A stretch of DNA of 39,596 nt, taken from positions 1 through 39,596 of the IMG/VR virus record IMGVR_UViG_3300032103_000300, one strand, 5' to 3'. The position numbers and the translations under genes are program-made. Every line of letters starts with the position of its first letter. Positions within the stretch are counted from its first letter, which is position 1. Below the pieces are notes generated by a model. The model was not told the DNA's origin, made no database searches, and was given only the letters and a program-made list of their open reading frames with translations. This document shows positions 2,021 through 25,497 of the stretch, piece by piece. This stretch comes from a virus. Taxonomy: Duplodnaviria > Caudoviricetes.

Positions 2021-5000
2021 GTGCCCATAAGATGGAAAGAGCCTGAAAAGAAGCCAACAACGCCTAAGGTAGATATAAAGAGTTCTGCAACAGCTCCACG
2101 CTATGTGGCGCCCACTGTTGCCCCCCCTTCAGTTCCCGCTGTGGTTAAGGCACCTTCTGCTCCAAAGTGGGTGCAGTCCGCTCCTGCGCCCGCTCCTGCG
2201 CCCAGTCGCAAAGGGAGTGACCAACGCCAATCGGCACCTCTTACTCCACGAGCAAGAACTAATAATCAACGTCAGCCTATGCCTGTCTCTATTGCTCCAC
2301 CTTCTCCTCCTAAAGAAGGCTTCAAATGGGAGGACTTGAAAGCACTAGAAGTGGGCAACTTGCAGACTCATTTGGCCGATGCACAAAGACAGGTAATGTT
2401 TGACCCTAATAATCCTGAAAAAGCGAAGGCTGTCGAAATACTACAGCAGCAACTAAACGATGCGCAGATTGATACAAGTAACAAGACTTTCTTAGCTCGG
2501 GGCGTTATTGGTGCTTTGAAGCAGCTACCTCTAAGGGGCAGGTCTCTAGTACATGGGGCCAAGTATGGAGCTCCTGGAGCCGCAGTAGGAGCTGGCGCGG
2601 CAGCAATTGCCGGTCAATTAGGTCCACAAATCGCCCTTCCCGAAGAAATTGCCACAGTGCCATTAGGAGCGTGGTTTGGCGCTAAAACTGGCATGAAGCT
2701 TGGTTCTACGATTTATATGGCTCAGCAAGAGATGGGCCCCGCCTACTTCCAATATAGGTCACAAGGAATGACGCATGAAGAAGCATTTGCACCTGCACTA
2801 GCTGCTGGCGTGATAAATGGTGTGGTTGAAACTCTCCAGTTGGACCGATTTATCAAAACTATACCCGGTTTGGGCACAGCTATAGATGAAGTTAAAAAGA
2901 GAGCTGTTTTAGAAATAATGAAGAATTATGCACAATATGTGGCTCTCGAGACAAGTGAAGAAGTAATCCAAAGCCTGGTAACTAATACGATGGGGCAAAT
3001 TGCAGCAGCTGTAGCTAATAGTAAGAGATTGCCAGAAGACCAGATTGCGGGTATGAGTATTGGCGAGATTTTAAGTGCAGCGGGTCGCGAAGGTGCTGAG
3101 GCATTCCCTGCGGTTTTAGTAGGGGGCTTGCCAGGTCACGTAGCACAAGCGGGAATTGCGACCTTTACGTCGCCTTCAACGCCCTCTTCTATAACACAGC
3201 AAATCCCGGAGGTGAATATAGCTAGTGTTACCCCACAAACAGTGGATGTGCATCAAAAGGGGCCAGAGTACCGACTCCAGACTCTTAATGAGGCTCTGCG
3301 AACGACTTTGGATTCGGTTGGGACCCCCTATCAAGCGGAGATACCCCTCGCGGTGGCAACCTCGCAAGCGACTATTAAGTCCCGACCAGACCTCCAAATT
3401 GCACAGACTTTGTCTAAAAAAATTGGTGTGGAAGTGGTCTTCTATAACCCACAAGACGTAGCAGATTTGCATAATGGAATGTATTACGATGGTGCAATCT
3501 ACATTAACGAGAGAGCACAAAATCCTGCTCATGTAGTCTTTGGACATGAGCTTGTGCATACTTTTACTCCCACAGAAAAAGCAGAATTTAGTTATCTTAT
3601 GAAGGAGCTACGAAAAGACCCAGGCGCACAACAATATTTTAATAAACTCAAGCTAGAACATCAAGTGAGCACGGGCGAGATACTTGATAGAGCGCAACTT
3701 AATGAAGAATTTTTAGGTGACTTTTTGGGGGAAAATTTTACTAACGAGAGTTTCATTGATAAAATCGCTCAAGCGTCTCCATCGCTCGCTAAACGAATTT
3801 GGACAGGCATCAAAAAACTACTAAGTCGTCTTAGCGATGATGCTAAAAATACACCTCATGAACAGGTTCAGGTGCGTCAATTCGTAAAAGACTTAGAAAA
3901 AGCTGAGAATAAATTTGCACAGATAATTGGTGCTCGCATCGAAGCACAAAAAGATATAGCCCAAACTAGTCCAATGAAGGGGGATTCTTTTCTTAAAGCT
4001 TCGGCTAAGATTGGAATTCACGAAGGTGTTAAAAATGCGGACAAGTTTAATATTCCTGAAACACATAAACTCGTAACACCAGAACACGACAGAGGATTAA
4101 TACCTTCTAAGCATAGTGGCATTTTTGATAAAGATGGCTCAAAAACACTTGAGAATAACCTTGCTCCAACGCTTACTTTTTCACAACTACAGGGTTCGGA
4201 AGCTAAAAGGTCCATACCACGAGTCTCTACTAGGCGCGAAGAAAATGTATTTTACTCACAATTAGTTCGAACTATCAACGAAAAAATGCCTGGCACAGCC
4301 GACAAAGCGACCGTACTTGAGATTCTTAATAGTCCCGAAATTAAGCGTGATGAAGTCAAATGGACGAGGGGTCTGGAGAAATGGGTCAGCAGGCAAAAAG
4401 GCGAAATTAAAAAAGAAGAGCTGTTTTCTTATATTCAAGAACATGGCCCCCAATTTGTTCAAAAAATAGTGAAACCTTTGGCTCATAAAAAGAAGGAAAC
4501 TGCATTTTCCTCTAGTAAAGACTATTCTGAACAAGTTTATCATATCGTAGAAAGGGGTTCTATTGAAAACCTCAAATCACTTAAGGATACGACACGTGCC
4601 GTTAGAGAAGAAGGATTCAAGAGATTTTCGACCAAGCGAATAGATAATTTTTACTCCCAACTAGTTAAAGACATAGAAAAAAAGATACCTTATAAGACTA
4701 CTAAAAAAGCTTTACTATCTATCATAGAAGGACCAGCCATTAAACCCGAAGAAGTCAAATGGGCAGGCAAGTTAAAAGAATGGGTAGAGGCTCAAGATGA
4801 GCCCATTCTAAAGGAAGATATAATTGCTCATATTCATGAATATAGTCCAGAATTTGTCACGAGCTCGTTAAAAGCAGAGGAGTCCATTTATCGGCCAATA
4901 CTTCCTTTTGCTGCGAGTCGTGCATACCAAGAGAATTTTTACCACATAAACCAGCGCCCTGCTAAAGCTCGTACCTCCAAGGAGATTCAAGAATTAAAAG

Positions 5001-8000
5001 ATAATATTGAAGCTGCTCGAAAAGCTTTATATGACTACTGGGACATCACTAGTGGTTCCATGGGCAGCGCAGTAGCTGATGCTATTCCTAGGGAAGTTAG
5101 GGTGAGACATGAACCAGCACTAGGAAGAGAGCTAGCGAAGAGACGTGCCGAGTACACTCGAGCCACACAAAATCTTCCTTTTGCAGGCTATAAAACTGGC
5201 CATTTTGACGATAAGGCACCTATAGATTTAATCGCGCATTCTCGCACTGATATGCTTACCACTCGTCGTAAAGAGCGAGTCCTACACGTGCATGAGATAC
5301 AAAGCGATTGGCATCAGACTGGCAGAAGAGAAGGTTACGGGACTCTAAATCAGTATTCTTCGAATCCTCCAGAAGGCCCACACTCCAAAACTTGGCCAGA
5401 ATTTGTAGCTAAAAATATCTTGAACCAAGCAATAGAAACAAACGCAGAATATATTACCTGGTCCACTCCTGAGCAACAAGTTGAATTATATGGGACAGAC
5501 GTTTATGCATGGATGGGATACCATGATGCTAAAGGAAATCCAGCATGGGATATTCGATACAGAGAAACAAAACAGTCGCAGTACATGACCTACTTAGATA
5601 CTATTCGTAACTTTGAAGAGCTGGACCAAATTGCTCCTGACCATATTGCCAAAAAAATCTGGGCGAACATCCAGCAGAGCCCTGGTTTCGGGACCTTCAA
5701 GCCTCGCGAGAGAGGCATGGAAATATTTTATGGTACTTATGTACCTAAAGCATTCGAGAGCGCCTTAAGAGAGATAGGACAAAAGTTTGTTCCCATAGAA
5801 TTAGAAGTAGTTGACGCCGATGGTCAGCGTCACCTACAGCCGGGATTCAAATTCACAACTGAGATAGCTAAAGCTATTAAAGATAAAGGCTTTAAGAAGT
5901 TCTCAACAAAAAGAGATAATTTTTATTCTCAGTTGGTTAGGACTATAGAGCGAAAGATGCCTAAAACAGCGGATAAGCAAATGGCCCTTCAAATTTTAAG
6001 GAGTCCTGAAGTTAAGCCAGAAGAAGTTAAATGGGTTAGAGGGATTGAAGCTTGGATACATAAACAGGAAGGGAAAGTTAAAAAAGACGATTTGCTTACC
6101 TATATTTATGAGCATAGTCCACGATTTACGTCTATAAATCTTCCTGGGACTTATTATGCGGCATATACACCTTTCCGTCCCAGTGATAAATATTTAGAAA
6201 ATCTTTATCATATTGAGAAACTGGCTCCGACCATAGAAGACCCTCAAATATTGATAGATTTAATAGACGAAGCAAAACTTGCTCGGAATCGACTGGATGA
6301 ATATCAGGAAACGCTTATAAAAAAATATCCAATAGTGCCTGGGGATCCAGTATTACCTTTGACTAGAGAAGAACACGAAAAATTAAGTGAATTATATGAT
6401 GCTTGGATACTATCAGATAATGCGGTCTTGAGTCTTCAAGCTGACAAACCTTTTATAGGTTATATAGCCCCTCATTTTTCTAGGGCTGCGGATAACATAC
6501 CAGATATAATTGCTCACTCTCGCACGGACATCTTAGACAATCCAGAAAAAGAGCGAGTTCTTCACATTTTTGAAATTCAGAGTGACTGGCATCAAGCTGG
6601 GAGGAAGTACGGATACAATAAACAAGACCCACGAGGAAACATAACCCCCGAGGGCCCACATTCCAAAACCTGGCTAGAACTTGCAGTTAAAAATCTCCTG
6701 AATCAAGCGGTACATTCTGACGCAAAATATATTACTTGGGCTACCTCTAAACAGCAAGTTGAAGTGAATGGGACAGATGTGTTTGAATGGGTACAGTTAA
6801 GGGATGATGAAGGCCTTGAAAAATGGGAAGTGAAATACACTAAAACCACTTTGAATAACAAACGAGTACTTTTAGGTTATATTGAGACACTTGAAGATTT
6901 GCGGGAAAAACTTCAGGGCTCATACTATACCGCTAATAAAGTATGGAACGCAATGCAACAAGACCCATTTGGTATGATTAAGCCAAGAGAAGAAGGCATG
7001 GAAATATTTTATGGTACTTATGTACCTAAAGCATTCGAGAGCGCCTTAAGAGAGATAGGACAAAAGTTTGTTCCCATTACTGTGACCGTTGTGGACGACT
7101 CTAATCAAGGTCGGAAACAGCCAGGCATTGAAATTACCCCAGAAATAGTCAAGGCAATTCAAGACAAGGGTTTTAAGAAATTCTCCACTAAGAGGGGTTT
7201 TTACTCCCAGCTATATAAAACCGTGGAAAAAAAGATGCCTAAAACAGCGGATAAGCAAGTTGTTCTGAATATCTTACAGAGTCCCGAAATTAAACCCGAT
7301 GAGGTCCTGTGGACTAGAGGCCTGAAATTTTGGATAAATAGCCATGAAGGCAAAATTAACAAAACTGACTTACTTGCATATATTCATGAAGCGAGTCCTT
7401 CGTTCATCAAGACATCATTAACTCGTAATAACACAGCATATAGGGGAATGTTACCTTTCAGCGCTAGCGAAGACTATTCGGAAGACTTGTACCACATTGA
7501 AGCACAGCAACCTCTTGAGAAAGACCCAATTGTGATAGAAGAACTAAAAACTAAACTTCAAGCTGCAGATAGGGCACTTGATGATTATCGCCTATATCAG
7601 AATAATAGAACTCTCCCCGATGACTACCAAGCACGAACAAAACTCTTAGCCAAAGAGTTGCTCGAAGCCGAGAGATTAATGCGGAATTGGCAAAAAGCAA
7701 AGAAGCATCTAGATAAGGTCACTATCAGGCAGCCTGTGGTTGGCCATTACATAAGACATTTCAGAGGCGTGGGTATTCCTGACGTCTTTGTTCATGTCCG
7801 GACAGATGTGCTTGATACTGCTGACGCCTATGATGCTGTACTACATGTACATGAGATACAAAGTGACTGGCATCAAGACGGCAGAAAGTTTGGCTATGAT
7901 ACTTCCCCCCATAATATACCAGAAGGACCCCATTCTAAAACTTGGCTAGAGTTCGCGGTCAAAAATCTCTTACATGACGCGGCGCTTTCAAATTATCACT

Positions 8001-11000
8001 ATCTTACTTGGTCTACTGGCGACCAGCAAATTAAAATGTATGGGACAGATATTTTCAAATGGAGACGACAATTTGGAAATATCTGGAAGGTCGATTTATA
8101 TGAGTCTACTAATCCTTTTCAAATACTAGAAAACGCCACAATTGGCACTATGCATGGGTTACATGAGATAATAAGCCTATCTGACACCAAAAAAGCAGAG
8201 AAAGTCTGGAAGGCTATTCAAGCAAGTCCAGAACAAGGAAAAATTGAGCCTAGAGCCGCGGGCATGAAAGCATTTTATGAGACACTTGTACCCAAAGCGT
8301 TTGAAGCGGCTCTTCGTGAAATAGGCCAAAAATTTGTTCCTATCACAGTGGAAGTAATTGATGTTAATGATTTTACTCATAAACAGCCAGGCATAGAAAT
8401 TACGCCTGAAATAATACAAGCCATTCATGAGAAGGGCTTCAAAAAGTTTTCTATAAAAAGGAGTCCTAAAGCACAAACTTTAGAACAAAAGATTGCAGAA
8501 TTAAAGGCTCAAATCCCCACAATGTCAAAGACCGCCGCTAATAAGCTAAAAAAAGAATTGGCTCGCTATGAGGCACTATTACAGGAGGTTAAAGATAGGG
8601 AGGTCAAAACAAAACATATTAACGAGATTCGTAAAATCCTCACGCAAAAGCTAATCATCCCACAAATTAAACAACAAGCAAAAGAAGACAGAAAACTGGC
8701 GACAGGAAAGCTACGTCATAGATTAGAAGCAATAAGATTAAAAAAGCGAGAGAAAAGAGCAAAATTATTAGACCGTAGAGTAAAAAAAGATTTACTTGAG
8801 TCCCTAAGACAACTTAAGGCAGCTGAACTTAGGCCTCATTATCGAGCCGCGGCTGACCAGCTTCTGGAAGGATTAGACCTCAAATCCATTAGAATGAACT
8901 TAAATAACAAGCTAAAACTCGAAAAAGCTGCTGCTTTTTTCCAAGCACAACAAGCCCATGACCCTAGCTATGAAATTCCCGAAGGCTTGCAGAATCGTCT
9001 AAGAAGACTGAATCAAAAGAGAATTGGAGACATGAGCGCCGACGATATTCAAGTGCTGCAAGATGCTGTAACACATATCCTCAAACTCAATGAGCTTACG
9101 AATAAGTTAATAGCAGATAGGGGCCTTAAAGAATTCGAGAGCGTAAAACAAGCCGCACTACGTGGCATTAATGCGCCCAATAATAAGCAAATAAAAAGAA
9201 TGCACTGGTTGCAAAAACAGTGGGACTATCTTATGAAGACAGGAGCTTTGATGCCTGAGATGTTGGCCGCCCGATTGCTAGGCTGGGACCGAAATAATGA
9301 GGCCTACAAAGTCCTCTATACTGACATGGAGGAAGGGCAGCGGAAGATGTATGGGAAGCAACAAGAGATAGAGAATTATCTCGATGAGCAATGGAAGGGC
9401 ATAGATACCATTAAATGGGATGCAAATAAGCATGATGTGAAGCTTGCAAGTGGTACTTATAAACTTACCTCTGGCGAGAAAATCTCCCTTTATTTGCATT
9501 CTTTGCATCCACAAAATCGAGCCCACATTATAGAGGGCGGATTTACCACAGAAGAGAATTTAGCAGTTACAAAACTTACAGCTGAAGATTTAGCTAAAAT
9601 AGGGACCGAGCTTAAGCCTCAAGAATTAGACGTAGCAAAGTCAATCCACCATATGTTTAATGAGATGCTCAGCAAAGCAATCAATGAGACCTCTGTGAAA
9701 CTTAAAGGATATGAAATTGCTAGAGTTAGAGATTATTTCCCTATTATAACAGAGAAGATGCTGCAGGATAAAGACTTCCCCTCTCACTTACGAAAGGCTG
9801 TTCTCGAACAAGCTGGATACCTAAAGACCCGCCAAGGGGGGACTAATGCAATAAGGCTTGAGAGTGTTTTCCGAGTAGTAGAACGAAGTAAAAATATGGT
9901 CTCCGCTTATTATGGTCAAGCAATTCCTCTCCGAAACTTAAAAATGCTGCTAGGTAATGCAGACGTCAGTAACGCTATCCTCAAAAAATATGGTGAGAAC
10001 GTGCTTGAGATTTATCAGAGGCTGTGGCAGCAATTAGAAGGTAATCGAGAACGATTAAATCCTTCTGACCGAGCTATCAAAACAACCATGCATAATGTTA
10101 TCCAATCTATTTTAGGCTTGGGACCATGGATATGGTTCAAACAATTAGCTTCCATTCCCTCAGCCTGGGCAGATATTGATGCTAAATATCTGGCTCAAGG
10201 TGTGGCAACGAAAGCTGACTGGAAAACTATGGAAGCTAAGTCACCAATTATGTGGCTCCGTCGCCGAGGATATATCAATCCCGAAGCAGGAGAAATTGCA
10301 AGACGCAGACAGGAACATCGCAAGCCTGGTTCCTGGACGACTATGCCTATCCAGACTTTTGATAATATGGCTATTGCCTCAGTCTGGAATGCCGTCATAG
10401 CAGAAACTAAAGACTTAGAACCCCAACTATCGGGCGATGCCTTCTGGGACCGCGTGGCACGAAGGACTGAAAAAATCATCTTTCATACTCAACCTAATTT
10501 TAGCGCCCTCCAACGTTCAGATGTAGCAAGAACTGAGTCCGTACTACTTCGTTTAGCAACGCTATTTGCTTCACAACGAAACACTAACTATAATCTTCTC
10601 TATGAAGCTGGGGTTGAAGCTTCCCAAGGTAACTATAAAAAAGCCACGAGAATCGTCTCAGCTGTAGCTGCTGGCTCGTTAACAGTTGCCGCGATTGACC
10701 TGGTGAGATTCAAATGGCGAGACCGAGAGGACCAAGAAGAACTTGCTTACCTCACGGAACAATTCGCAGTTGCCTTAATGAGTAATGCATATTTCGCGGA
10801 ATCTCTATATAGTATTCTAATTAAGGGTAGGGCTCGAGAGGATGCGGTAGATACAGCGATTCAGGACTTCCTTATCGCCACTAGAGATTTAGCAAGTAGC
10901 CCATTTACTCCTGGCACGCTTTCCCCACAAGAGATTCATACTTTATCAATAACGGACCTTAGGGAGGCCGCTACTAGCCGGGGTATTAGCACAGATGGAC

Positions 11001-11428
11001 GGTCTCGAAACGCCTTGATTCAAGCCCTTACTAAATATAATCCCGAAGGGGCCACCTCTCTAGGAAAAATGGTCAATGTAATACGGGCCGTTGCTCATTT
11101 AGGAGGCATTCCAGTTGCTAATGTTCTACGAGAACTGGAAGCCGCTCTTAATCAAATAGACCCTCTATTAGCTTATGAATGGCAAAAGTTGATGGAGAAT
11201 CCCACAACGACTAAACAAATGGAGAGACTTTTCAAAGAGGTTGCGAAATACCCCAACCCCCAAGAGGCTTTTGCTAAATCTTCCTTGCTTCCTGTACTAA
11301 AACGGGATATGATAGAAAGAGGCATTACAGCTCGTTCAGTAGAGTCAAGCGGGAATGCAAGGAACCGCCGTAAGCCTGGGTCAATCCCACTGTTGCCAGT
11401 CATCTCGAGACACTTCCCTAGTAGATAA
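2021..11428 (+). CDS. Giant (3135 aa) polyvalent / internal virion protein with zincin metallopeptidase, tandem EIQSDW modules and SAP-like motif
   Basis: Single ORF with GGGGAG RBS and GTG start. Pro-rich N-terminus, Gly/Ala hydrophobic region, HELVH (3545-3559) with downstream NEEF, four repeats starting FYSQL, helical C-terminal region. Confidence 0.85.
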   Translation: MPIRWKEPEKKPTTPKVDIKSSATAPRYVAPTVAPPSVPAVVKAPSAPKWVQSAPAPAPAPSRKGSDQRQSAPLTPRARTNNQRQPMPVSIAPPSPPKEGFKWEDLKALEVGNLQTHLADAQRQVMFDPNNPEKAKAVEILQQQLNDAQIDTSNKTFLARGVIGALKQLPLRGRSLVHGAKYGAPGAAVGAGAAAIAGQLGPQIALPEEIATVPLGAWFGAKTGMKLGSTIYMAQQEMGPAYFQYRSQGMTHEEAFAPALAAGVINGVVETLQLDRFIKTIPGLGTAIDEVKKRAVLEIMKNYAQYVALETSEEVIQSLVTNTMGQIAAAVANSKRLPEDQIAGMSIGEILSAAGREGAEAFPAVLVGGLPGHVAQAGIATFTSPSTPSSITQQIPEVNIASVTPQTVDVHQKGPEYRLQTLNEALRTTLDSVGTPYQAEIPLAVATSQATIKSRPDLQIAQTLSKKIGVEVVFYNPQDVADLHNGMYYDGAIYINERAQNPAHVVFGHELVHTFTPTEKAEFSYLMKELRKDPGAQQYFNKLKLEHQVSTGEILDRAQLNEEFLGDFLGENFTNESFIDKIAQASPSLAKRIWTGIKKLLSRLSDDAKNTPHEQVQVRQFVKDLEKAENKFAQIIGARIEAQKDIAQTSPMKGDSFLKASAKIGIHEGVKNADKFNIPETHKLVTPEHDRGLIPSKHSGIFDKDGSKTLENNLAPTLTFSQLQGSEAKRSIPRVSTRREENVFYSQLVRTINEKMPGTADKATVLEILNSPEIKRDEVKWTRGLEKWVSRQKGEIKKEELFSYIQEHGPQFVQKIVKPLAHKKKETAFSSSKDYSEQVYHIVERGSIENLKSLKDTTRAVREEGFKRFSTKRIDNFYSQLVKDIEKKIPYKTTKKALLSIIEGPAIKPEEVKWAGKLKEWVEAQDEPILKEDIIAHIHEYSPEFVTSSLKAEESIYRPILPFAASRAYQENFYHINQRPAKARTSKEIQELKDNIEAARKALYDYWDITSGSMGSAVADAIPREVRVRHEPALGRELAKRRAEYTRATQNLPFAGYKTGHFDDKAPIDLIAHSRTDMLTTRRKERVLHVHEIQSDWHQTGRREGYGTLNQYSSNPPEGPHSKTWPEFVAKNILNQAIETNAEYITWSTPEQQVELYGTDVYAWMGYHDAKGNPAWDIRYRETKQSQYMTYLDTIRNFEELDQIAPDHIAKKIWANIQQSPGFGTFKPRERGMEIFYGTYVPKAFESALREIGQKFVPIELEVVDADGQRHLQPGFKFTTEIAKAIKDKGFKKFSTKRDNFYSQLVRTIERKMPKTADKQMALQILRSPEVKPEEVKWVRGIEAWIHKQEGKVKKDDLLTYIYEHSPRFTSINLPGTYYAAYTPFRPSDKYLENLYHIEKLAPTIEDPQILIDLIDEAKLARNRLDEYQETLIKKYPIVPGDPVLPLTREEHEKLSELYDAWILSDNAVLSLQADKPFIGYIAPHFSRAADNIPDIIAHSRTDILDNPEKERVLHIFEIQSDWHQAGRKYGYNKQDPRGNITPEGPHSKTWLELAVKNLLNQAVHSDAKYITWATSKQQVEVNGTDVFEWVQLRDDEGLEKWEVKYTKTTLNNKRVLLGYIETLEDLREKLQGSYYTANKVWNAMQQDPFGMIKPREEGMEIFYGTYVPKAFESALREIGQKFVPITVTVVDDSNQGRKQPGIEITPEIVKAIQDKGFKKFSTKRGFYSQLYKTVEKKMPKTADKQVVLNILQSPEIKPDEVLWTRGLKFWINSHEGKINKTDLLAYIHEASPSFIKTSLTRNNTAYRGMLPFSASEDYSEDLYHIEAQQPLEKDPIVIEELKTKLQAADRALDDYRLYQNNRTLPDDYQARTKLLAKELLEAERLMRNWQKAKKHLDKVTIRQPVVGHYIRHFRGVGIPDVFVHVRTDVLDTADAYDAVLHVHEIQSDWHQDGRKFGYDTSPHNIPEGPHSKTWLEFAVKNLLHDAALSNYHYLTWSTGDQQIKMYGTDIFKWRRQFGNIWKVDLYESTNPFQILENATIGTMHGLHEIISLSDTKKAEKVWKAIQASPEQGKIEPRAAGMKAFYETLVPKAFEAALREIGQKFVPITVEVIDVNDFTHKQPGIEITPEIIQAIHEKGFKKFSIKRSPKAQTLEQKIAELKAQIPTMSKTAANKLKKELARYEALLQEVKDREVKTKHINEIRKILTQKLIIPQIKQQAKEDRKLATGKLRHRLEAIRLKKREKRAKLLDRRVKKDLLESLRQLKAAELRPHYRAAADQLLEGLDLKSIRMNLNNKLKLEKAAAFFQAQQAHDPSYEIPEGLQNRLRRLNQKRIGDMSADDIQVLQDAVTHILKLNELTNKLIADRGLKEFESVKQAALRGINAPNNKQIKRMHWLQKQWDYLMKTGALMPEMLAARLLGWDRNNEAYKVLYTDMEEGQRKMYGKQQEIENYLDEQWKGIDTIKWDANKHDVKLASGTYKLTSGEKISLYLHSLHPQNRAHIIEGGFTTEENLAVTKLTAEDLAKIGTELKPQELDVAKSIHHMFNEMLSKAINETSVKLKGYEIARVRDYFPIITEKMLQDKDFPSHLRKAVLEQAGYLKTRQGGTNAIRLESVFRVVERSKNMVSAYYGQAIPLRNLKMLLGNADVSNAILKKYGENVLEIYQRLWQQLEGNRERLNPSDRAIKTTMHNVIQSILGLGPWIWFKQLASIPSAWADIDAKYLAQGVATKADWKTMEAKSPIMWLRRRGYINPEAGEIARRRQEHRKPGSWTTMPIQTFDNMAIASVWNAVIAETKDLEPQLSGDAFWDRVARRTEKIIFHTQPNFSALQRSDVARTESVLLRLATLFASQRNTNYNLLYEAGVEASQGNYKKATRIVSAVAAGSLTVAAIDLVRFKWRDREDQEELAYLTEQFAVALMSNAYFAESLYSILIKGRAREDAVDTAIQDFLIATRDLASSPFTPGTLSPQEIHTLSITDLREAATSRGISTDGRSRNALIQALTKYNPEGATSLGKMVNVIRAVAHLGGIPVANVLRELEAALNQIDPLLAYEWQKLMENPTTTKQMERLFKEVAKYPNPQEAFAKSSLLPVLKRDMIERGITARSVESSGNARNRRKPGSIPLLPVISRHFPSR
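4250..8461 (+). repeat. Four diverged intragenic domain repeats (one internally deleted, three of ~425 aa)
   Basis: Units start FYSQL at 4250, 4649, 5921 and 7199 and end GFK[KR]FS[TI]KR. Units 2-4 contain HxRTD...LHxxEIQSDWHQ...PEGPHSKTW. Confidence 0.93.
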
Positions 11429-11446: not shown

Positions 11447-12211
11447 ATGGACTACAAAAATCATTTTTTTGAAGAGGACATTAAAGAGTCTATTAGAAGG
11501 AAATTATTGGTTGGCGATGGGCAGGGCAATTTTAGACCCGATGACCCAATTACTCGAGGCGAAGCAGCAGCTTTAATGCTTCGATTATTGTCGCAAACAG
11601 AAGCACTAGAGTACGAAGTACGAAAGGTAATTAAGCAAGCTAAGCCCGCGGTTGTTCGTATTGCGACAGAGCATGGTCTAGGAACGGGTAGTATTATAAC
11701 TCCAGAGGGACTCGTGCTTACTAATCATCATGTAGTCAGTAAGCAAGGTCAATTGGCCAAAAATGTTATTGTTCAAGCTATTATTCAAAAGGTTGGGTGG
11801 GAAGAGTACGAAAACTTACCCGCCCAGATTATCCTCCGCGATGAGTTTCTGGATTTAGCCTTACTTAGGATAAATCAGCCCGCTCGTATACTACCCACTT
11901 TAAGCATTAAGCCCTCTGTGGAATGCCAAGATTTAGAGGGCAACTTCGTTATCTGTATGGGCTATCCTCTAGGGTTACAAGTAACAGCTACGTTTGGTAT
12001 TGTATCTCAGGACGTTCAAGTTGTGTCTGCCTATATCGGGCATATTCAAACTGATGCAGCTATCAACCCAGGTAACTCAGGCGGTCCTATGCTTAACTTA
12101 AAAGGGGAAATTATAGGAGTAAACACTCTCAAAATCTCAAATCATGATAATATGGGTTTTGCTGTGGATACCAGGTTTATCGAGAAATTCTTGTCGGGTC
12201 TTCGAGAATAA
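11447..12211 (+). CDS. SLH-domain trypsin-like (HtrA/S1C-type, no PDZ) serine protease
   Basis: N-terminal GNFRPDDPITRGEAAALMLR (SLH signature); catalytic triad motifs TNHH, DLALL, AINPGNSGGP. Confidence 0.92.
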   Translation: MDYKNHFFEEDIKESIRRKLLVGDGQGNFRPDDPITRGEAAALMLRLLSQTEALEYEVRKVIKQAKPAVVRIATEHGLGTGSIITPEGLVLTNHHVVSKQGQLAKNVIVQAIIQKVGWEEYENLPAQIILRDEFLDLALLRINQPARILPTLSIKPSVECQDLEGNFVICMGYPLGLQVTATFGIVSQDVQVVSAYIGHIQTDAAINPGNSGGPMLNLKGEIIGVNTLKISNHDNMGFAVDTRFIEKFLSGLRE

Positions 12212-18275: not shown

Positions 18276-18304
18276 ATTATAACATAGTTTTCGGAACTTG
18301 TAAA
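18276..18304 (-). promoter_or_regulatory. Sigma-A-type promoter
   Basis: TTTACA-17 bp-TATAAT with extended TG, upstream of a GGGAGG RBS. Confidence 0.8.
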
Positions 18305-18313
18305 TGGTACATT

Positions 18314-20659
18314 TTAAGAATTTCCAGTATCCCATATTTTTCCGCTCCCCCAGCTCCCTAATTTAATTTCAATCTCAATTGGAACGGGTATTTTATATCC
18401 AAAAATTGCTTCAATGGTCTCCATGTCAGTCATGTATTCTCGAACCTTGAGTAGCATCTCATCAATTGAATCTTTTCGTATTATAAATAAGAGCGCATCA
18501 TGGATATTCCCTAAACAGCGTATCTTTGCCCAAGGGAGCTCTTTTAATATACGTCCATAAGCAAACATAGCTAAGTCAGCACCAAAGCCTTGAACGGGTG
18601 CATTTATCGCTTGTCGCTCAGCTTCTGCTCTAATACCATTCTCAGGACTGTTAATCTCGGGTAATCTACGTTTTCTACCTATGGGATTACGGACATAACC
18701 AAATTTTTTTACTAATCTCCGTTGTCGGTCATGCCAAGAAGGAAGCCCGGAATACAAGTCAAAAAATCGTTCTCGAAAAGCTATCGCTTCAGCATCTTTT
18801 AGATGTACATCATATTTATCTCGAGCGTATTCCTTAAACTTTTTGGCTCCCATTCCATATAAAAATCCAAAATTAACTGCTTTAGCTTTTTTTCTCATAT
18901 CATTTGTGACTTGTTCTGGAGGTATACCAGAAACGGCAGAAGCTGTGAGTCGGTGAACATCGCCCCTTGTTTGAAACGCACGTTTCATTGTCACATCCCC
19001 CGATATCGCGGCGGCTATACGTAACTCAATTTGCGAGTAGTCTGCTTCTACAAATACCCAGCCAGGAGGAGCAGTAATAATCGACCTAAGGAACGGGTCG
19101 CGAGGTACTTGTTGCAAGTTAGGGTCCACACAGGAGAGTCGTCCAGTAACCGTGCCATGTATCTTAAAATTGGGGTGGATTCTGTCATTCTTCATGAGCT
19201 TACCCCAGCTTATAAGAAATTCACTCAACTTTTTTTGTTCCCTATATTTTAGCAGGGTTTCTACCACTGGATGATTACGAAGCTGGAGCAGAACAGACTC
19301 AGCCGTAGAATCTTTTCCCGTATCGGTTTTGGCGATAGACTCGAGCCCCAACTTATCGAATAATACCATTGCTACCTGTTGGGTTGAGTTCCAATTAATG
19401 CCTGGCGCATAGCTATCTAGCGCTGTTAACAAGTCTTTTATACGACTATTGACCGTACTAAGAGCTGCTTGATACTTTTCGGAGTCTAAATATATGCCTT
19501 CTAGTTCAGATTTAACTAAGCCATTAGATGCAGGTATGGTTATATGCTTAAAGATTTTCGTAAGTTGCTTATCCCTAAGTAACTCCTCCTTAAATCGCAT
19601 ATATAGTTTGAGCGTATAAAAGACATCGATAGCACAGTATCTTGCAAGTTTATGCAAGGGCATTGCATATGGGTCAATAGGCATAGGCAACTCATATTCG
19701 GGAGCATTAAAATACATTTGCGAGAGAGGCTTAAGACCATGTCGATTATTCTCGTCCAACAAATGAGACGCCAGCATTGTATCAAAAGTATGTTCTTTAT
19801 GAAACCCATGCTTCGCTAATAACCACTTACTGTCGAATTTAGCATTATGCGCGACCCATTTTTTCCCCCGAACAGCGAGCTCAAGCATTTTGAATATCTT
19901 TGATTGGGTAAGCTCATCATTAAAGGGGCTAGTAGGATACCACAAAGGTATGACCCACTGTTTGCCAGGTTGTGCTAAACCTAAACAATAGATTTTACTC
20001 TGAGGGTCTAACATATTCAAGCTCGAAGTCTCTACATCATAGACTATTACGTCTGCTTGGGCTAAGCTAGCCATACATTGCCGCAATTTCCCAGGCGTAT
20101 CAACTAAAGTCCAATTAAGCTCGCTATTAAGGTCATGAAGGGTCCCCCTTATGACGTCCCCGAATCTCTTGAAGTCTGCTCGTACGGACGACTCTTGTTG
20201 GGGTTGTCGAAATAGACCTGCGGGATGCATAGTTATCATATAGGATATTCCGTCTCTCTCAACAGTCTGACCTCTAAGCTGCATAACACCTGACTTATTC
20301 AGCGTTGCTTTAAGAGCGGTGGCGCCTAACACAATAACATACTTGGGCTTAACCTCCGCAATTTCCTTTTTTAAGTGAATGCTACAAGCTTTAATCTCCT
20401 TTTGGTTAGGTGGACTATTATCTTGTGGACGACATTTAACGGCGTTAGTAAGATACACATCTTCGCGTTTTAAGCCCGCTTCAGCTAACAGCTCCGAAAG
20501 CAATTTACCAGCCTTTCCCAAGAATGGGGCACCTTTCTCATCTTCAACGTATCCTGGAGCTTCACCTAAAATCATAATATCGCAGGGAATGGGACCTGTC
20601 CCTTTAAGCTTATTAGTCTGAGCATGTTCGTGTAATCTACAAAGCTTGCATTCTGCCAC
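18314..20659 (-). CDS. polA: Family A DNA polymerase with N-terminal family-4 uracil-DNA glycosylase domain and 3'-5' exonuclease
   Basis: UDG4: CKLC, GEAPG, TNAVKCRP, MHPA. Exonuclease: DVET, HNAKFD, YCAID. Polymerase: TGRLS, DYSQIELR, KAVNFGFLYG, IHDAL. Confidence 0.95.
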   Translation of the reverse strand: MAECKLCRLHEHAQTNKLKGTGPIPCDIMILGEAPGYVEDEKGAPFLGKAGKLLSELLAEAGLKREDVYLTNAVKCRPQDNSPPNQKEIKACSIHLKKEIAEVKPKYVIVLGATALKATLNKSGVMQLRGQTVERDGISYMITMHPAGLFRQPQQESSVRADFKRFGDVIRGTLHDLNSELNWTLVDTPGKLRQCMASLAQADVIVYDVETSSLNMLDPQSKIYCLGLAQPGKQWVIPLWYPTSPFNDELTQSKIFKMLELAVRGKKWVAHNAKFDSKWLLAKHGFHKEHTFDTMLASHLLDENNRHGLKPLSQMYFNAPEYELPMPIDPYAMPLHKLARYCAIDVFYTLKLYMRFKEELLRDKQLTKIFKHITIPASNGLVKSELEGIYLDSEKYQAALSTVNSRIKDLLTALDSYAPGINWNSTQQVAMVLFDKLGLESIAKTDTGKDSTAESVLLQLRNHPVVETLLKYREQKKLSEFLISWGKLMKNDRIHPNFKIHGTVTGRLSCVDPNLQQVPRDPFLRSIITAPPGWVFVEADYSQIELRIAAAISGDVTMKRAFQTRGDVHRLTASAVSGIPPEQVTNDMRKKAKAVNFGFLYGMGAKKFKEYARDKYDVHLKDAEAIAFRERFFDLYSGLPSWHDRQRRLVKKFGYVRNPIGRKRRLPEINSPENGIRAEAERQAINAPVQGFGADLAMFAYGRILKELPWAKIRCLGNIHDALLFIIRKDSIDEMLLKVREYMTDMETIEAIFGYKIPVPIEIEIKLGSWGSGKIWDTGNS

Positions 20660-20665
20660 TATTTA

Positions 20666-20860
20666 TCACCTCCGTTTTTTTGGACGGATAGCCCCATATC
20701 TACGTTGAGGACTCAATATCTGAATGTCTGCCCACGAAGGGCTTAAATTAGCTTTTTGTTGCTTTATTAAAGCTTTTGCTTTTATGTGTGAATCACATTC
20801 GCCGTGGCAACCAGGGTATCTTTTTATGCAGTTTAGACAGCCCCCGTATAAATCTCTCAT
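20666..20860 (-). CDS. Small Cys-rich hypothetical protein
   Basis: CLNCIKRYPGCHGEC; ATGA overlap with the deaminase stop. Confidence 0.7.
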   Translation of the reverse strand: MRDLYGGCLNCIKRYPGCHGECDSHIKAKALIKQQKANLSPSWADIQILSPQRRYGAIRPKKRR

Positions 20861-21273
20861 AGTTTTATTTTGGTCATCCCTGCCTGGTCTAAATACGAGA
20901 CAGCAGACTTACCATACTCCTCTTTATAGATTACGGTGTGGACTCCAGCATTAATAATAAGCTTTGCACAAGCCAAACAAGGGGAGTGAGTAACATAAAG
21001 CGTTGTTCCCTCCAAACTTATACCATGTCGTGCTGCAAAAGAGATAGCCGCAGCTTCTGCATGTACACAGCGTTCACAACTGCCTGTATCAGGGTTTAAT
21101 AGACACCCCTCGTCTAGGCAGTGAGGCATTCCCGTAGGAGCACCATTGTATCCCGTAGCTACAATCCGTCCGTTTTTGGTAAATACGCAACCGACTTGGG
21201 CTCGGGTACACGTAGCCCTAGTAGCCATGAGCATCGCCACAGCCATATGTAGCTCATTTCTCCCCAGTCGCAT
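20857..21273 (-). CDS. dCMP deaminase (ComEB-like)
   Basis: TGYNGAP, HAE and SPCLAC zinc-deaminase motifs. Confidence 0.93.
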   Translation of the reverse strand: MRLGRNELHMAVAMLMATRATCTRAQVGCVFTKNGRIVATGYNGAPTGMPHCLDEGCLLNPDTGSCERCVHAEAAAISFAARHGISLEGTTLYVTHSPCLACAKLIINAGVHTVIYKEEYGKSAVSYLDQAGMTKIKL

Positions 21274-22052
21274 TATAAATCCCTCCTATACTGAAGAATT
21301 GGAATATCGCCAACGAAGCAATGAAAAGACCATATTTGCATGGTGAGAGTGCCAGGTACAACATGCGTCCAGCCCACCTCATTGAGTACCCATAAGAGAA
21401 GCCTCGCGGCTAAGTAAATGTCGTCTCTAAAATGTCGGATGTAGTCGCATGCCCTAATGGGGTAGAACATATGTAGCTGGTCGTTTCTCATCATGAAATG
21501 GTAGCCTATCGTACAAGGTACTCTACCTCTATGTTTAACCCCAGTGTCCTCGGGAAACCAAATAGGTAAGAATGCTTGCCGGGTGTAGGGCTCTCGGCGG
21601 AGTAAGTTCACTACGTGTTTTAAGTCACCATATTCGTATCTAATTCCCCGAGTGGGGAGTGTTCGACCGCCTGCATAGATAGGCCAGAAGCGTTCCATAT
21701 AGCTATGGGTAAACTGTCCGCCTTGTGCTCGAAATGCATCATCTCGTTCGCTACCTACGCGATAGAAGGGCCAGTTTTTATATTGTTCGCCAGGATTGAG
21801 CGGGACTCCTCCCACTCGCTCTAAAAAATGGTCATCAGCCCATGGTAAATTGGGCTTAATTTGTCTTTTGAGCTCGTCAACGTCAGCAGAGACTTGGCAA
21901 GTGAAGGAATAGTTAAGCAGTTCATGAGACTTGAATTCTGGCTTACTACCAATATCCATACCTTGCCATCTTGTCGTATCAACAACCTCCCCCTGAATTA
22001 ATAGTGCCTCTCGGGCTTCGATAATTACCTGCTGGAAACTATTGTGGTACAC
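21273..22052 (-). CDS. Thymidylate synthase-fold enzyme 1 (probable dCMP-specific C5 transferase)
   Basis: TRQAFLPIW, VPCTIG (catalytic Cys), RACDYIRHFRDD (Asp at the ThyA Asn177 position), SFHCF. Confidence 0.85.
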   Translation of the reverse strand: MYHNSFQQVIIEAREALLIQGEVVDTTRWQGMDIGSKPEFKSHELLNYSFTCQVSADVDELKRQIKPNLPWADDHFLERVGGVPLNPGEQYKNWPFYRVGSERDDAFRAQGGQFTHSYMERFWPIYAGGRTLPTRGIRYEYGDLKHVVNLLRREPYTRQAFLPIWFPEDTGVKHRGRVPCTIGYHFMMRNDQLHMFYPIRACDYIRHFRDDIYLAARLLLWVLNEVGWTHVVPGTLTMQIWSFHCFVGDIPILQYRRDL

Positions 22053-22737
22053 TTAACTTCCCCCAATCTTTTTTGAATATGTGAATGGACCCAAACCAGT
22101 GGTGATAAATACCCACGGGCAAATTAAGCCTAGCCGCTACATGTTGCTGAATCATATGACTCACGAAAAGATTGTTTTGGAAGTGATTAATATAGTCACA
22201 GGACCGTTGCAAGACCGAAATATTTAGCTTCCCCTCGCGATTGGTAAAATAAAAGCCCAGAATTGTAGGTACAACCGAGTAACCGTCATTGTATCTCAAA
22301 TCTAACGTGTCCCATATGGGTATATATGCCTGTCGTCCCTGTGAGTCAATTCGCGAAAGATAGTCTACGACAGTCTTAAGTGTGCCTGCAGAATATATTC
22401 TCTCAGCTAAACTATAAGGAAACTCTGCGTCCATACTATATGTTACGCCGAACTTATCTTCATTAAGCTTCCATGCTTCACCGGGATTGATTGGCTTACC
22501 GCTAAGCGTCTCTTTAACATACGCATTAGCCCAAGGTTGGTCGGGGTAGAGGTCACTAGCATGAGGGTTACGTACTTGAAAGGAGTGGTTAAGCAGCTCG
22601 TGATACTCAAATTGGTCCGGGTCATCCCCCACAAATTGCCCGTTGCAATAGCGGGATATTATCGGTTGGCTATTCTCAATTTGGTATTGAAGCAGGGCCT
22701 CTGTATAGCGCTTGGCCAGGGAAAAATCGGTTAACAT
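22039..22737 (-). CDS. Thymidylate synthase-fold protein 2 (lacks catalytic Cys)
   Basis: GRQAYIPIW, VPTILG, RSCDYINHFQNN, GSIHIF; paralog of TS1 (shared HELLNxSF, PWA and PxNPGE). Confidence 0.8.
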   Translation of the reverse strand: MLTDFSLAKRYTEALLQYQIENSQPIISRYCNGQFVGDDPDQFEYHELLNHSFQVRNPHASDLYPDQPWANAYVKETLSGKPINPGEAWKLNEDKFGVTYSMDAEFPYSLAERIYSAGTLKTVVDYLSRIDSQGRQAYIPIWDTLDLRYNDGYSVVPTILGFYFTNREGKLNISVLQRSCDYINHFQNNLFVSHMIQQHVAARLNLPVGIYHHWFGSIHIFKKDWGKLSVPQ

Positions 22738-23543
22738 GAATTGTCCTCCTTCTTTTTCTTAATGGCTTCTAATAGAGCGGGAGAAATTTGATTTAAGAAT
22801 TTTTCAGACCATTTGCGCCTTTGCATCCATTTGATTTTATCGGGATAGATAAACTCCTGCCAGAAATGTTGTTTTATAGTCTCCTGCCACGGAGTTTTAG
22901 GACAAGACGTCATGAATCGTAATAGCTCTTCCTCCCCATGCGTATATAAGAGGAACAAAGGGACCATGTATTTCATCTGAGAAGGCAATAGAAGAGTCCA
23001 CTTAAGTTCAACGTTATCGATGTCGAACTTCTTAAGCTGCGCCTCCCGTGCCGCCCGTGCTACGCAATGCTCCAAGAATAGTACGTCCCCCAGCAATCTA
23101 GCCGTTATTTCAGAAGCTCGAGATAGGATGTGCACATGCCATTTTTTTTGAAACCACGTGAAGTTGATTGATATAAGGCACCCTCCTCCTGCAGGCACCT
23201 TTCGCTCTTTTGTGGCGCGACGATTAAAGACAATTACTGATGTGCTGGGATAAGACCCCGTAAGCTTACTTTGTCGTTCCAACATACGGCCCACACCAGC
23301 ATCCCAGAATTCGGGGTCGATATAGCGTTTAGCTAGCAGGCTCAATCGTTTGCTAGGCTGGAAAAATGGGGGCAATTTTTCAGGAATACCAAAGCCATTT
23401 GTGGCCGTAAGCGTGATGTGGTATTGGGCATAAGAAAAGTCACGTCCCGGCATTAGCATTGCGTTCGTGGGAACATCATATATAAATCGAGAATTTAGCT
23501 CCCACCAAGCGTTATAGATAGTATCGGTACGAATGTCCCGCAT
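22731..23543 (-). CDS. Divergent thymidylate synthase-fold protein 3
   Basis: GGGCLISINF...HILSRASEITARLLGD mirrors the TS core C...R-S-x-D...D spacing; adjacent to TS1/TS2. Confidence 0.6.
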   Translation of the reverse strand: MRDIRTDTIYNAWWELNSRFIYDVPTNAMLMPGRDFSYAQYHITLTATNGFGIPEKLPPFFQPSKRLSLLAKRYIDPEFWDAGVGRMLERQSKLTGSYPSTSVIVFNRRATKERKVPAGGGCLISINFTWFQKKWHVHILSRASEITARLLGDVLFLEHCVARAAREAQLKKFDIDNVELKWTLLLPSQMKYMVPLFLLYTHGEEELLRFMTSCPKTPWQETIKQHFWQEFIYPDKIKWMQRRKWSEKFLNQISPALLEAIKKKKEDNSC

Positions 23544-24136
23544 TAGTATTTGTTCTCCTGTCTTTTTTGATTGACAGCATTTTTGTGCATATATAACTCA
23601 TATAGCCTAGCCGCGTCTATGCCTACTGAAATACATAAGGCGACGAATTTGTGGAAGCTCGATACGACACGGGCATGTATTAAATCAATATCCGTAACGG
23701 TCTTAGTTTGCTTCCAGGGTTTATTACGAAGCGCGTGTCCCACCATACCTAAGCCCGAGACTAAAAAGGCCATGTTAAGCTGCGGGTCCCGAGAAAAAAT
23801 ATGCGAATGGGAATAAGCGAACAGGCCCCCTAAATCATCGGAGGTGATTTGACTAGGTACTACGCCACAGAGAATGGCGAGCTCTACGAGAAAATGAAAG
23901 GCGTCTGAAAGTTCGTCCTGACAACTCGTGGATTGCCAACCTCCGGGGGTGTTCATCGCCTCGGCCAATTCCTCAACGATACACCAAAGGGTGAACTTAA
24001 CGTAATATTGATAGTGCGCATCGCCTATGAGTCGCAAGTCAGGGTGCGGAGGCTCGAATCCATTGAACTCTTGAATCGCGTGGTACTTGCTCATGAGACG
24101 CCTTTGTTCTTCAAAGATAGCCTGCAATTTGTTCAC
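23543..24136 (-). CDS. All-alpha dNTP pyrophosphohydrolase (dUTPase_2 / dCTPase-like)
   Basis: VEELAEA, DELSDAFHF, KPWK, KNAVNQKRQENKY; start moved to GTG 24136 (TAGTG overlap). Confidence 0.85.
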   Translation of the reverse strand: MNKLQAIFEEQRRLMSKYHAIQEFNGFEPPHPDLRLIGDAHYQYYVKFTLWCIVEELAEAMNTPGGWQSTSCQDELSDAFHFLVELAILCGVVPSQITSDDLGGLFAYSHSHIFSRDPQLNMAFLVSGLGMVGHALRNKPWKQTKTVTDIDLIHARVVSSFHKFVALCISVGIDAARLYELYMHKNAVNQKRQENKY

Positions 24137-24654
24137 TACTCCTTCCCCCTTATGCAAAGGTGGATATCACCCGCCAGCTCAATAGCTTTAGGGTCTACAC
24201 GATAATTATATACAATGAGGGGTATCTCATCAAGTCGCCTTACTCGGTCCATAAAATCGTCATAGCTTTGCAAGAGTGCCGCACCATGGTCAACCACACC
24301 AGCCATCTGGTCACGGTCAGCGAGCGAGCCCAATATTAAGTCTCTGTGAGGACGGCAATATACTAGTATCATGTCGGGTTTAAGCTCGTCTAACCATCGC
24401 CGTTGTACATCTTTTAAGACATTCTCACCCCGAAGAATGGGACCATACACGTATTCGCTAATTATAGGAAGGCGGTCTACCAGGATATGACCAGTATCGT
24501 TATGCCGTTGCACGAGATTAATGAGCCACTCCTCATGCTCCTCCTTTGTGGCCTTACCGAGGGATTTAACTATGGGGAAACCAAATAAAGTATGCATTTT
24601 CTCAATCGCCGTTGTTTTACCAGTATTATCCATGCCTTCAAAAACTATAATCAC
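24136..24654 (-). CDS. dNMP kinase (thymidylate kinase-like)
   Basis: IIVFEGMDNTGKTT P-loop; DRLPIISEYVYGPILRG. Confidence 0.9.
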   Translation of the reverse strand: MIIVFEGMDNTGKTTAIEKMHTLFGFPIVKSLGKATKEEHEEWLINLVQRHNDTGHILVDRLPIISEYVYGPILRGENVLKDVQRRWLDELKPDMILVYCRPHRDLILGSLADRDQMAGVVDHGAALLQSYDDFMDRVRRLDEIPLIVYNYRVDPKAIELAGDIHLCIRGKE

Positions 24655-25091
24655 TTAACTTGCCTCACTTTCTTTAATTTGCGGGTATATGCGGGTTTAG
24701 GTTTCGGCTCCTTAGGCTGGGCAGGCGCTTTTTGTTGTCGTTGCTCACGCCCCTTGCGTATCGCATCGATTATGTAGCCCTTTAAGTCATCCAGACGATT
24801 GGCCTTGCGAACGTAAAAGTCACGGTCTGAAATATAGCAGATAGGGCATCTGACCAGCTCCATAATCTCATCCAGCCAGAAAGTTTGAGGTTTACCACAA
24901 TAGGGACACCAAAGGAAACGGCCTCGGCGAGAGAAAGAGTCGGGAGGCATCGCTGGCTCCAAAAGAGAATGCGTATGTATCTCCGCCCCTGGAAGACGGG
25001 CCGTAGCCAGCTCCATAAACTCCTCTATCTGATTATCGGGCAATCTGCGAGTTATACGAACGCCTTTATAGACAATAACGATGCCTCTCAT
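24651..25091 (-). CDS. Zinc-ribbon hypothetical protein
   Basis: WCPYC...RCPIC, basic tail; GTGA overlap with the kinase start. Confidence 0.75.
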   Translation of the reverse strand: MRGIVIVYKGVRITRRLPDNQIEEFMELATARLPGAEIHTHSLLEPAMPPDSFSRRGRFLWCPYCGKPQTFWLDEIMELVRCPICYISDRDFYVRKANRLDDLKGYIIDAIRKGREQRQQKAPAQPKEPKPKPAYTRKLKKVRQVK

Positions 25092-25095
25092 ATCA

Positions 25096-25431
25096 CTAAT
25101 GTTTCTTGTTAAGGTCCGCGTTATCTACTGCTGCTTCAAGGTCCTGAAAACTATCGAAGACCTGAATATCGACGTCGTCCTCCCGTGCCTCAAGCAAGTA
25201 TTGAAGAATCGGCTTGGGTAACGTGCCTTCGTCTAGCATGCAATGTGCACCCATTAAATTATGTAAGGCAGTGTCAGGACTTATTGTGGAAGTGACTTGA
25301 ATAGAGCGAGCTCCCAGCTGAATACCCATAATTAAATTCATTTTCTCTCGTTTGCAAATATCGTATAGCGAATCAACTAGCGCCTTAAGCTCCTCTTCAT
25401 AAATTTTAAGGTGACGTTTGAAGTCGGTCAT
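25096..25431 (-). CDS. Hypothetical protein, first gene of the leftward operon
   Basis: GGGAGG RBS before ATG 25431. Confidence 0.7.
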   Translation of the reverse strand: MTDFKRHLKIYEEELKALVDSLYDICKREKMNLIMGIQLGARSIQVTSTISPDTALHNLMGAHCMLDEGTLPKPILQYLLEAREDDVDIQVFDSFQDLEAAVDNADLNKKH

Positions 25432-25468
25432 ACGATTTTTCCTCCCTTCCATTTTTTGGTATGATGTA

Positions 25469-25497
25469 ATTATATCACAATCACGAGAATTTGTAAA
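25469..25497 (-). promoter_or_regulatory. Sigma-A-type promoter for the nucleotide-metabolism/polymerase operon
   Basis: TTTACA-17 bp-TATAAT with extended TG. Confidence 0.8.

Follow-up and report, generated by a model that had tools for sequence, protein, structure and literature searches.

The viral genome record IMGVR_UViG_3300032103_000300, analysed over its whole length of 39,596 nt (39.6 kb; hereafter the window), was recognized in family scans as that of a tailed phage by its terminase, P22-like portal, capsid, amidase endolysin and SLH-domain protease. On its minus strand lies an operon in which three genes for proteins of the thymidylate synthase (TS) fold, here named TS-A, TS-B and TS-C, stand among genes of nucleotide metabolism and replication. 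The order is a promoter-like site, open reading frames (ORFs) of 118 and 146 aa, kinase, pyrophosphatase, TS-C, TS-B, TS-A, deaminase, a 64-aa ORF and a uracil-DNA glycosylase fused to a family A DNA polymerase (UDG-PolA). Genes overlap by 1-14 nt at every junction from the kinase through the 64-aa ORF, no minus-strand terminator-like site with a clean T run was found within the operon, and the region showed 0 differences from contigs of the likely source run, an aquatic metagenome, which are not independent evidence. The operon is real. An earlier reading of the letters alone (the sequence-only reading) had listed these genes in this order behind the promoter-like site, and ORF calls, family scans and the consensus match agreed with it; to its operon content we add the three ORFs and the lack of the catalytic cysteine in TS-B. 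Its report of no glycosyltransferase or DNA methyltransferase also held, as none was present among the 38 window proteins scanned.

Table 1. Features of the operon and its flanks (window coordinates).
Feature	Position	Strand	Basis
Promoter-like site, sigma-70/sigma-A type, extended -10	25469..25497	-	consensus match only; one of three with identical hexamers
118-aa ORF, first gene after promoter	25096..25452	-	no significant family
146-aa ORF with four cysteines	24651..25091	-	recurs upstream of kinase in relatives
P-loop dNMP kinase, thymidylate-kinase-like (predicted)	24136..24654	-	weak PF02223; phrog_761 E 6e-19
All-alpha dNTP pyrophosphohydrolase, dUTPase_2 family (predicted)	23543..24136	-	PF08761 E 2e-11
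TS-C, TS fold with extra C-terminal helical part (predicted)	22731..23543	-	structure prediction, profile alignment
TS-B, short-subtype TS homologue, predicted catalytically dead	22039..22737	-	PF00303 E 4e-8
TS-A, long-subtype TS homologue	21273..22052	-	PF00303 E 3e-5; phrog_160 E 4e-26
dCMP-family zinc deaminase (predicted)	20857..21273	-	PF00383 E 2e-25
64-aa cysteine-rich ORF	20666..20860	-	ORF call; no family assigned by scans
UDG-PolA, 781 aa	18314..20659	-	PF03167, PF01612, PF00476; TIGR00758 above cut-off
Second promoter-like site	18276..18304	-	just beyond polymerase stop, before exonuclease, Sak4 and single-stranded DNA-binding protein genes

Active-site positions follow the numbering of E. 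coli TS, given in parentheses where a protein's own residue number comes first; only sequence alignment served to place positions 143, 58 and 94. TS-A carries Cys180 (146), Arg200 (166), Asp203 (169), Asp211 (177), Arg177 (143) and His75 (58). Relatives of TS-A were found in 166 phage records, 98 of them matching over at least 80% of its length, and after deduplication 88 TS-A-type loci were retained, leaving out the outgroup loci L032 and L036, partial proteins below 200 aa and near-duplicates. Asp177, Cys146, Arg126, Arg166 and Arg143 were conserved in all 88, Asp169 in 87, and histidine at the Glu58 site in 83. In VIA comparisons the TS-A model reached Z 14-17.4 against TS folds, the best being the flavin dCMP hydroxylase 9iqc (17.4; ThyA 16.6), and the best sequence match in the PDB was MilA. 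The three proteins all scored far below ThyA cut-offs, and none has the canonical ThyA set of Asn177, Cys146 and Glu58: TS-A and TS-C have aspartate at 177, and TS-B has the asparagine without the cysteine or the glutamate. The change N177D marks dCMP preference according to PMC8670742 and PMC13326640. The Asp177 of TS-A and TS-C therefore points to dCMP as the likely substrate, as the sequence-only reading had supposed, and TS-A is likely, judging from its sequence, a dCMP C5-modifying enzyme.

TS-C had no match in Pfam or NCBIfam; sequence and profile searches of the PDB and a sequence search of cultured phages gave no TS match, and neither a scan of viral contigs with close TS-C relatives nor single-protein locus scans with TS-B or TS-C returned anything. 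Its AlphaFold model (pLDDT 93) has the TS fold, with residues 190-270 forming an additional helical part. Foldseek matched the model to 9iqu (E 1.8e-6), all matches listed being TS-family entries, and VIA aligned 182 residues with 9iqc (AfhB) at Z 15.0 and a root-mean-square deviation of 3.0, with MilA at 11.9, ThyA at 10-11.5 and the next fold at 5.1. A language-model search placed TS-C near a cluster with 10% PF00303 members. It is through structure prediction only that TS-C is assigned to the TS fold. In an hhalign comparison with TS-A (E 3.4e-4), Cys122 fell on Cys180 (146) and Asp153 on Asp211 (177); the residue at the 169 site is Glu145. The TS-C family comprises 699 clusters at 50% identity, and Tyr74, Cys122 and Arg142 were found in 143 of 143 aligned members, with Asp153 in at least 90%.

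The gene neighbourhoods revealed that the conserved unit is a pair, a TS-A-type gene plus TS-C, and not the trio. TS-C lies within 5-6 kb of TS-A in 62 of the 88 loci and in 54 of the 55 with a polymerase, including those of Muddy, Serbin and Emalyn; it also adjoins the short-subtype TS in 25 of 30 TS-B-type loci (deduplicated from 80). Serbin, Emalyn, Muddy, PMBT14 and others share the order kinase, dUTPase-like, hypothetical, TS, deaminase, PolA, exonuclease and Sak4, and iterated profiles identified the "hypothetical" gene as TS-C. The survey for a triple-TS cassette that the sequence-only reading had proposed found both subtypes together in none of the 88 TS-A-type and none of the 30 TS-B-type loci, so that the trio of the window recurs in 0 of 118. 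That reading's three TS-fold paralogs were thus confirmed as to fold, but not as a multi-subunit or multi-step machine of three enzymes, since TS-B has lost its catalytic residues. A conserved triple was rejected as well because two A-family genes occurred in 0 of the 88 loci, and the two apparent doubles among the 30 TS-B-type loci (L150, L198) proved to be canonical ThyA. Some relatives add canonical ThyA (L150, L198) or ThyX (L035, L098, L164, and by clustering only L007 and L050); therefore, the pair is not just a source of dTMP, which leaves room for a product other than the 5-methyl one.

Several loci related to TS-A or TS-C depart from this arrangement. Two TS-C copies plus one A-type TS were found in L006, L035, L143, L150, L164 and L198; the seven loci scored with two TS-C hits include false or weak cases: cross-hits to the A protein account for L081 and L120, and the hits in L061, L070 and L098 were weak (41-58 bits) and unverified. 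At L150:996-1913, L198:1732-2709, L164:1972-2613 and L035:3970-4611, two TS-C genes, a short-subtype TS and ThyA or ThyX form runs of up to four consecutive TS-fold genes. The TS-A relative at L030:5950-7146 is interrupted by some 140 extra residues that may be left over from an intein or a homing endonuclease. In L019, L028 and L029, TS-A relatives with no TS-C detected stand beside DNA methylases and an amidotransferase resembling asparagine synthase, a setting that may represent another route of modification, and in L093, L111, L117 and L072 a TS-A clade of large phages adjoins genes for a glycosyltransferase, a sugar aminotransferase and a methyltransferase.

TS-B belongs to the fold by PF00303 above cut-off and a 99.6% hhalign match to the TS-A family. 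To evaluate its active site, it was compared with the best 119 of 402 short-subtype hits (120 sequences with TS-B). Equivalents of Glu58, Tyr94, Arg143, Cys146 and Asp177 are present in all 119 and replaced in TS-B by Tyr73, leucine, valine, Thr158 and Asn189, respectively; TS-B alone among the 120 lacks Cys146, Glu58 and Asp177. Altogether it has lost six active-site residues invariant across the 119 homologues and 10 family-invariant columns. The phosphate- and sugar-binding residues Arg126, Arg166, Ser167, Asp169 and His207 were kept, of which Arg126, Arg166 and Asp169 occur in 119 of 119. TS-B matches 35 of 62 well-conserved columns, its mean identity is 34% vs. 56% for other short-subtype members, and no close homologue was found in 5.8 billion proteins (nearest 46%). 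The frame is nevertheless open behind a strong ribosome-binding site. Because the probability of meeting no stop over 60-90 neutral amino-acid changes is only about 2.4-0.4%, an open frame is unlikely under long neutral decay; translational coupling alone could hold it open. The idea that TS-B is a recent duplicate of TS-A was rejected, as the two are 27% identical and TS-B falls outside the long subtype and has the short-subtype indels; its exact position is unsure in a quick tree in which it sits on a long branch. The short subtype is the usual partner of this TS-C lineage. Three loci holding the closest relatives of TS-C were informative: the short subtype is the sole partner of TS-C in L120 and L122, and L119 has the long type. 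To judge from its residues, TS-B would be either a dead or a helper copy, the two being roughly equally likely. Only this genome has the triple, in which one TS subtype seems to be giving way to another.

We then compared these proteins with the published signatures of TS-type modification enzymes. The acidic residue at 143 of hydroxymethylases of the T4 type (PMC13326640) is replaced by Arg143, and the hydrophobic residue of the Xp12-type rule is likewise arginine in 88 of 88, although that rule is loose, Xp12 TS itself having asparagine. D169N, the signature of 5-hydroxy-dCMP synthases (PMC13326640), was not found: the residue is aspartate in 87 of 88 TS-A-family and 119 of 119 short-subtype proteins and Glu145 in TS-C. 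An active Asn177 enzyme of the SPO1 type is also missing, as TS-B, the sole Asn177 gene, lacks the cysteine. An Asp177 TS with an adjacent PF00383 deaminase, as in Xp12, is present. In bioRxiv 10.1101/2024.12.05.627091, a TS lay within 3 kb of a deaminase in 104 of 149 C-modified contigs vs. 17 of 277 unmodified ones, 5 of 7 tested TS, which may or may not belong to the TS-A family, made 5-methyldeoxycytidine (5mdC), and a deaminase converted 5mdCTP to dTTP.

On balance, we give an even chance to the reading that TS-A and TS-C convert dCMP to a form modified at C5, 5-methyl-dCMP being the most likely, and that the kinase and polymerase would carry this product into DNA, TS-B having lost its catalytic residues. 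TS-A would probably act together with TS-C, in a mixed dimer or in two successive steps; its cysteine would attack C6 of dCMP, and C5 would be modified. The kinase would phosphorylate the modified dCMP, the pyrophosphatase would remove dUTP and possibly dCTP, the deaminase would, on the Xp12 pattern, supply dT from a share of the 5-methyl-C nucleotide, and the UDG domain would remove uracil during replication. TS-B may be the older partner of this TS-C lineage, kept as a nucleotide-binding helper or a relic after TS-A took over catalysis. The missing glycosyltransferase and the aspartate, rather than asparagine, at 169 favour 5-methylation. The pre-replicative C5 pathway of the sequence-only reading is supported, as is its suggestion that the deaminase could feed dT, which is already in print as the Xp12/mSCD model (bioRxiv 10.1101/2024.12.05.627091).

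Word counts served as indirect evidence on whether a modified base reaches the DNA, with one control per class, each from another host, a design that itself weakens the case for 5-methylation. The window holds one GATC vs. 105 expected (at 6344) and one TTTAAA vs. 19 expected (at 39164), and its C-containing 6-bp palindromes have an observed/expected ratio (O/E) of 0.96, compared with 0.89 in Xp12 and 0.49 in D29. According to PMC7653180, MboI (GATC) cuts the 5-methylcytosine (5mC) DNA of Xp12 but not the 5-hydroxymethylcytosine (5hmC) DNA of T4gt, and DraI (TTTAAA) cuts T4gt and T4 DNA; therefore, the near-loss of both words fits 5mC better than 5hmC. Serbin has nearly lost GATC too (O/E 0.02). 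In the Clostridium phage CPD4 locus (L033), the CG dinucleotide is at 0.09 of expectation in 9.7 kb, uncorrected for host background, and in L002 and L038 (Serbin) the GC and CG dinucleotides are both scarce (0.78, 0.79), perhaps as a means of evading nucleases that depend on modification.

A number of observations weigh against the 5-methyl-dCMP reading. The His58 and Arg143 of TS-A are neither the published methyl nor the hydroxymethyl signature, TS-A shares only 23% identity with Xp12 TS across 164 residues, and no dihydrofolate reductase (DHFR), which Xp12 has, was seen among the window proteins scanned. No TS-C was found within 5-6 kb in 26 of the 88 TS-A loci, most of these belonging to one clade of larger phages in which the surrounding genes differ, and the separate ThyA or ThyX of relatives would be superfluous if deamination of 5mC supplied dT. 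The word counts are also mixed. The O/E of C-containing sites lies between the controls in Muddy (0.79), Serbin (0.79) and PMBT14 (0.71); Muddy has 0 of 9 expected AACGTT and 0 of 8 expected ACGCGT, although AclI and MluI do not cut Xp12 or T4gt DNA (PMC7653180); CCGG is at 0.53 in the window, although 5mC blocks both HpaII and MspI (PMC7653180); and GATC is not depleted in Xp12 (0.98). The counts would be no different for unmodified DNA if the host had enzymes resembling MboI and DraI, and partial substitution or lineage differences would reconcile the data. Finally, no nucleoside or base analysis of cultured carriers was found in the literature searched: term searches of the papers on P744, CUB19 and four mycobacteriophages gave no digest or base data, and a motif search of the enrichment tables in the eLife MetaGPA supplement gave no family member. 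AXL3 is described as restriction-resistant but was not counted among the carriers.

A serious though clearly less probable explanation is a uracil-free thymidine supply, in which the pair methylates dCMP, the deaminase converts all of the product to dT, the pyrophosphatase and UDG only exclude uracil, and the bases of virion DNA are all, or nearly all, the standard ones. The site avoidance in Muddy, Serbin and PMBT14, the deaminase in 53 of 55 PolA-linked loci, the dUTPase name of the pyrophosphatase family and the lack of canonical ThyA or ThyX in the window would fit such a bypass; the ThyA or ThyX added in several relatives, the CPD4 locus, where no deaminase gene was found in the cassette, and the retention of a dedicated kinase argue against it, and two Cys/Asp177 proteins exceed what the route needs. 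It is rather improbable that the pair makes another derivative, such as 5-hydroxymethyl- or 5-hydroxycytosine or a compound that TS-C builds from the product of TS-A in a second step, possibly without folate. The flavin enzyme 9iqc as top structural match of both proteins, MilA as the best PDB match of TS-A, the rebuilt cofactor pocket suggested by His58 and Arg143, and the duplication of TS-C in six loci point that way, but Asp169 stands in place of D169N, the loss of GATC is a poor fit to 5hmC, which blocks MboI, and no glycosyltransferase occurred among the sampled neighbours of TS-C-bearing loci.

A bolder proposal, which we hold to be slightly less probable still, is that TS-A and TS-C would constitute the first heteromeric or two-step TS-fold system, with a cofactor pocket rebuilt from His58, Arg143 and the TS-C helical domain, placing an undescribed C5-substituted cytosine in the DNA of hundreds of phage lineages including Muddy; TS-B would be a pseudo-enzyme subunit sensing dUMP/dTMP via Asn177 and tuning the split between modified C and T. 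Activity of all three proteins in one machine, with TS-B on a uracil branch, is very unlikely: its intact ORF, strong ribosome-binding site, Asn177 and probably maintained frame are set against the loss of the catalytic Cys, Glu58 and Tyr94 equivalents among the 10 invariant columns, its long branch without close homologues and the absence of the trio from the 118 loci. Hardly credible at all is an ordinary nucleotide supply by divergent TS genes making dTMP from dUMP. Databases do annotate TS-A relatives as thymidylate synthase, and a deaminase, a dUTPase and a kinase commonly accompany dTTP synthesis; however, Asp177 is invariant, all three proteins fall far below the ThyA cut-offs, and canonical ThyA or ThyX is co-encoded at some loci.

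Among known systems, T4 encodes its dCMP hydroxymethylase pathway with gp42, gp1, gp56, cd and td. It resembles the window in a TS fold with the dCMP-type aspartate, a kinase, an all-alpha dNTPase and a deaminase, but its TS-fold enzyme is a single homodimer, acidic at 143, and it encodes glucosyltransferases and a separate canonical TS, whereas the window has Arg143, two different Cys-bearing TS proteins and no glycosyltransferase. The Xp12/metavirome neighbourhood (bioRxiv 10.1101/2024.12.05.627091) shares an Asp177 TS beside a PF00383 deaminase, a pyrophosphohydrolase (PRA-PH there), PolA and a proposed dT supply by deamination; the window differs in its Pfam-invisible TS-C, its divergent TS-A with His58 and Arg143, the unseen DHFR and the extra dead copy. 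The flavin 5-hydroxy-dCMP synthases (HY126 AfhB 9iqc/9iqu, RB69 gp48, DLP3 gp80; PMC13326640) are the top fold match of TS-A and TS-C and share Asp177, but the window lacks D169N and arabinosyl or other sugar-transfer genes. UDG-PolA fusions are described for SPO1, SP-15, YerA41 and N4-like phages (PMC10201439, PMC13697223), likewise with a family 4 UDG N-terminal to exonuclease and polymerase; the SP15-like ones have at least 1000 aa, compared with 781 aa here, and that of the window is linked to C-type enzymes. The cultured phages Muddy (gp49-44), Emalyn, Serbin, PMBT14, Polewnik and CPD4 have the kinase, dUTPase-like, TS-C, TS-A-family and PolA genes in the same order, with the deaminase in most, but only two TS-fold genes.

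Further details concern the other genes. The UDG domain is of family 4 by TIGR00758 (157 bits vs. a cut-off of 125.3), and it is an accessory rather than a core part because 11 of 55 PolA-linked relatives, Muddy included, have no UDG match. The pyrophosphatase likely starts at GTG 24136 rather than TTG 24157, given the position of the ribosome-binding site; its only PDB matches were to DCTPP1 and not significant (E 0.31). The four-cysteine ORF lies just upstream of the kinase in L005, L006, L033, L122, L127 and L128. The promoter-like site at 25497-25469 reads TTTACA-17-TG-TATAAT (score 11/12), and identical TTTACA and TG-TATAAT hexamers occur at three minus-strand sites (25497, 18304, 15559), which divide the leftward replication arm into three units; promoter-like sites overall (34 vs. 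25.3 +/- 5.7 in shuffles) are not above chance. Elsewhere, the window encodes on its plus strand a probable virion protein of 3135 aa (2021-11428) with a C-terminal SAP motif and PHROG matches all of unknown function, and a trypsin-like protease fused to an SLH domain (11447-12211), directly before the lysis genes. The host may belong to the Bacillota, given the SLH domain and the promoters with an extended -10.

The sequence-only reading had called the system a candidate undescribed one. This does not hold for the combination of Asp177 TS, deaminase, pyrophosphatase and PolA, which is in print (bioRxiv 10.1101/2024.12.05.627091), but it does for TS-C, which is unstudied; no paper describing TS-C or the TS-A/TS-C pair was found in the literature searched, most subscription journals lying outside its reach. 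The novel element is the pair, a probable variant of pre-replicative cytosine modification. Pfam has no model for the large TS-C family, whose catalytic-type residues are invariant, and so the family may harbour new nucleotide chemistry or form mixed dimers of TS proteins. The deaminase may prove methyl-selective, as are those employed in methylome sequencing. Some 100 records of cultured phages carry the cassette, among them many from Gordonia phages and that of Muddy, a phage used in therapy; their annotation names a thymidylate synthase and a hypothetical gene. If cytosine is indeed modified, these carriers would have a non-standard base that alters how host restriction systems see them.

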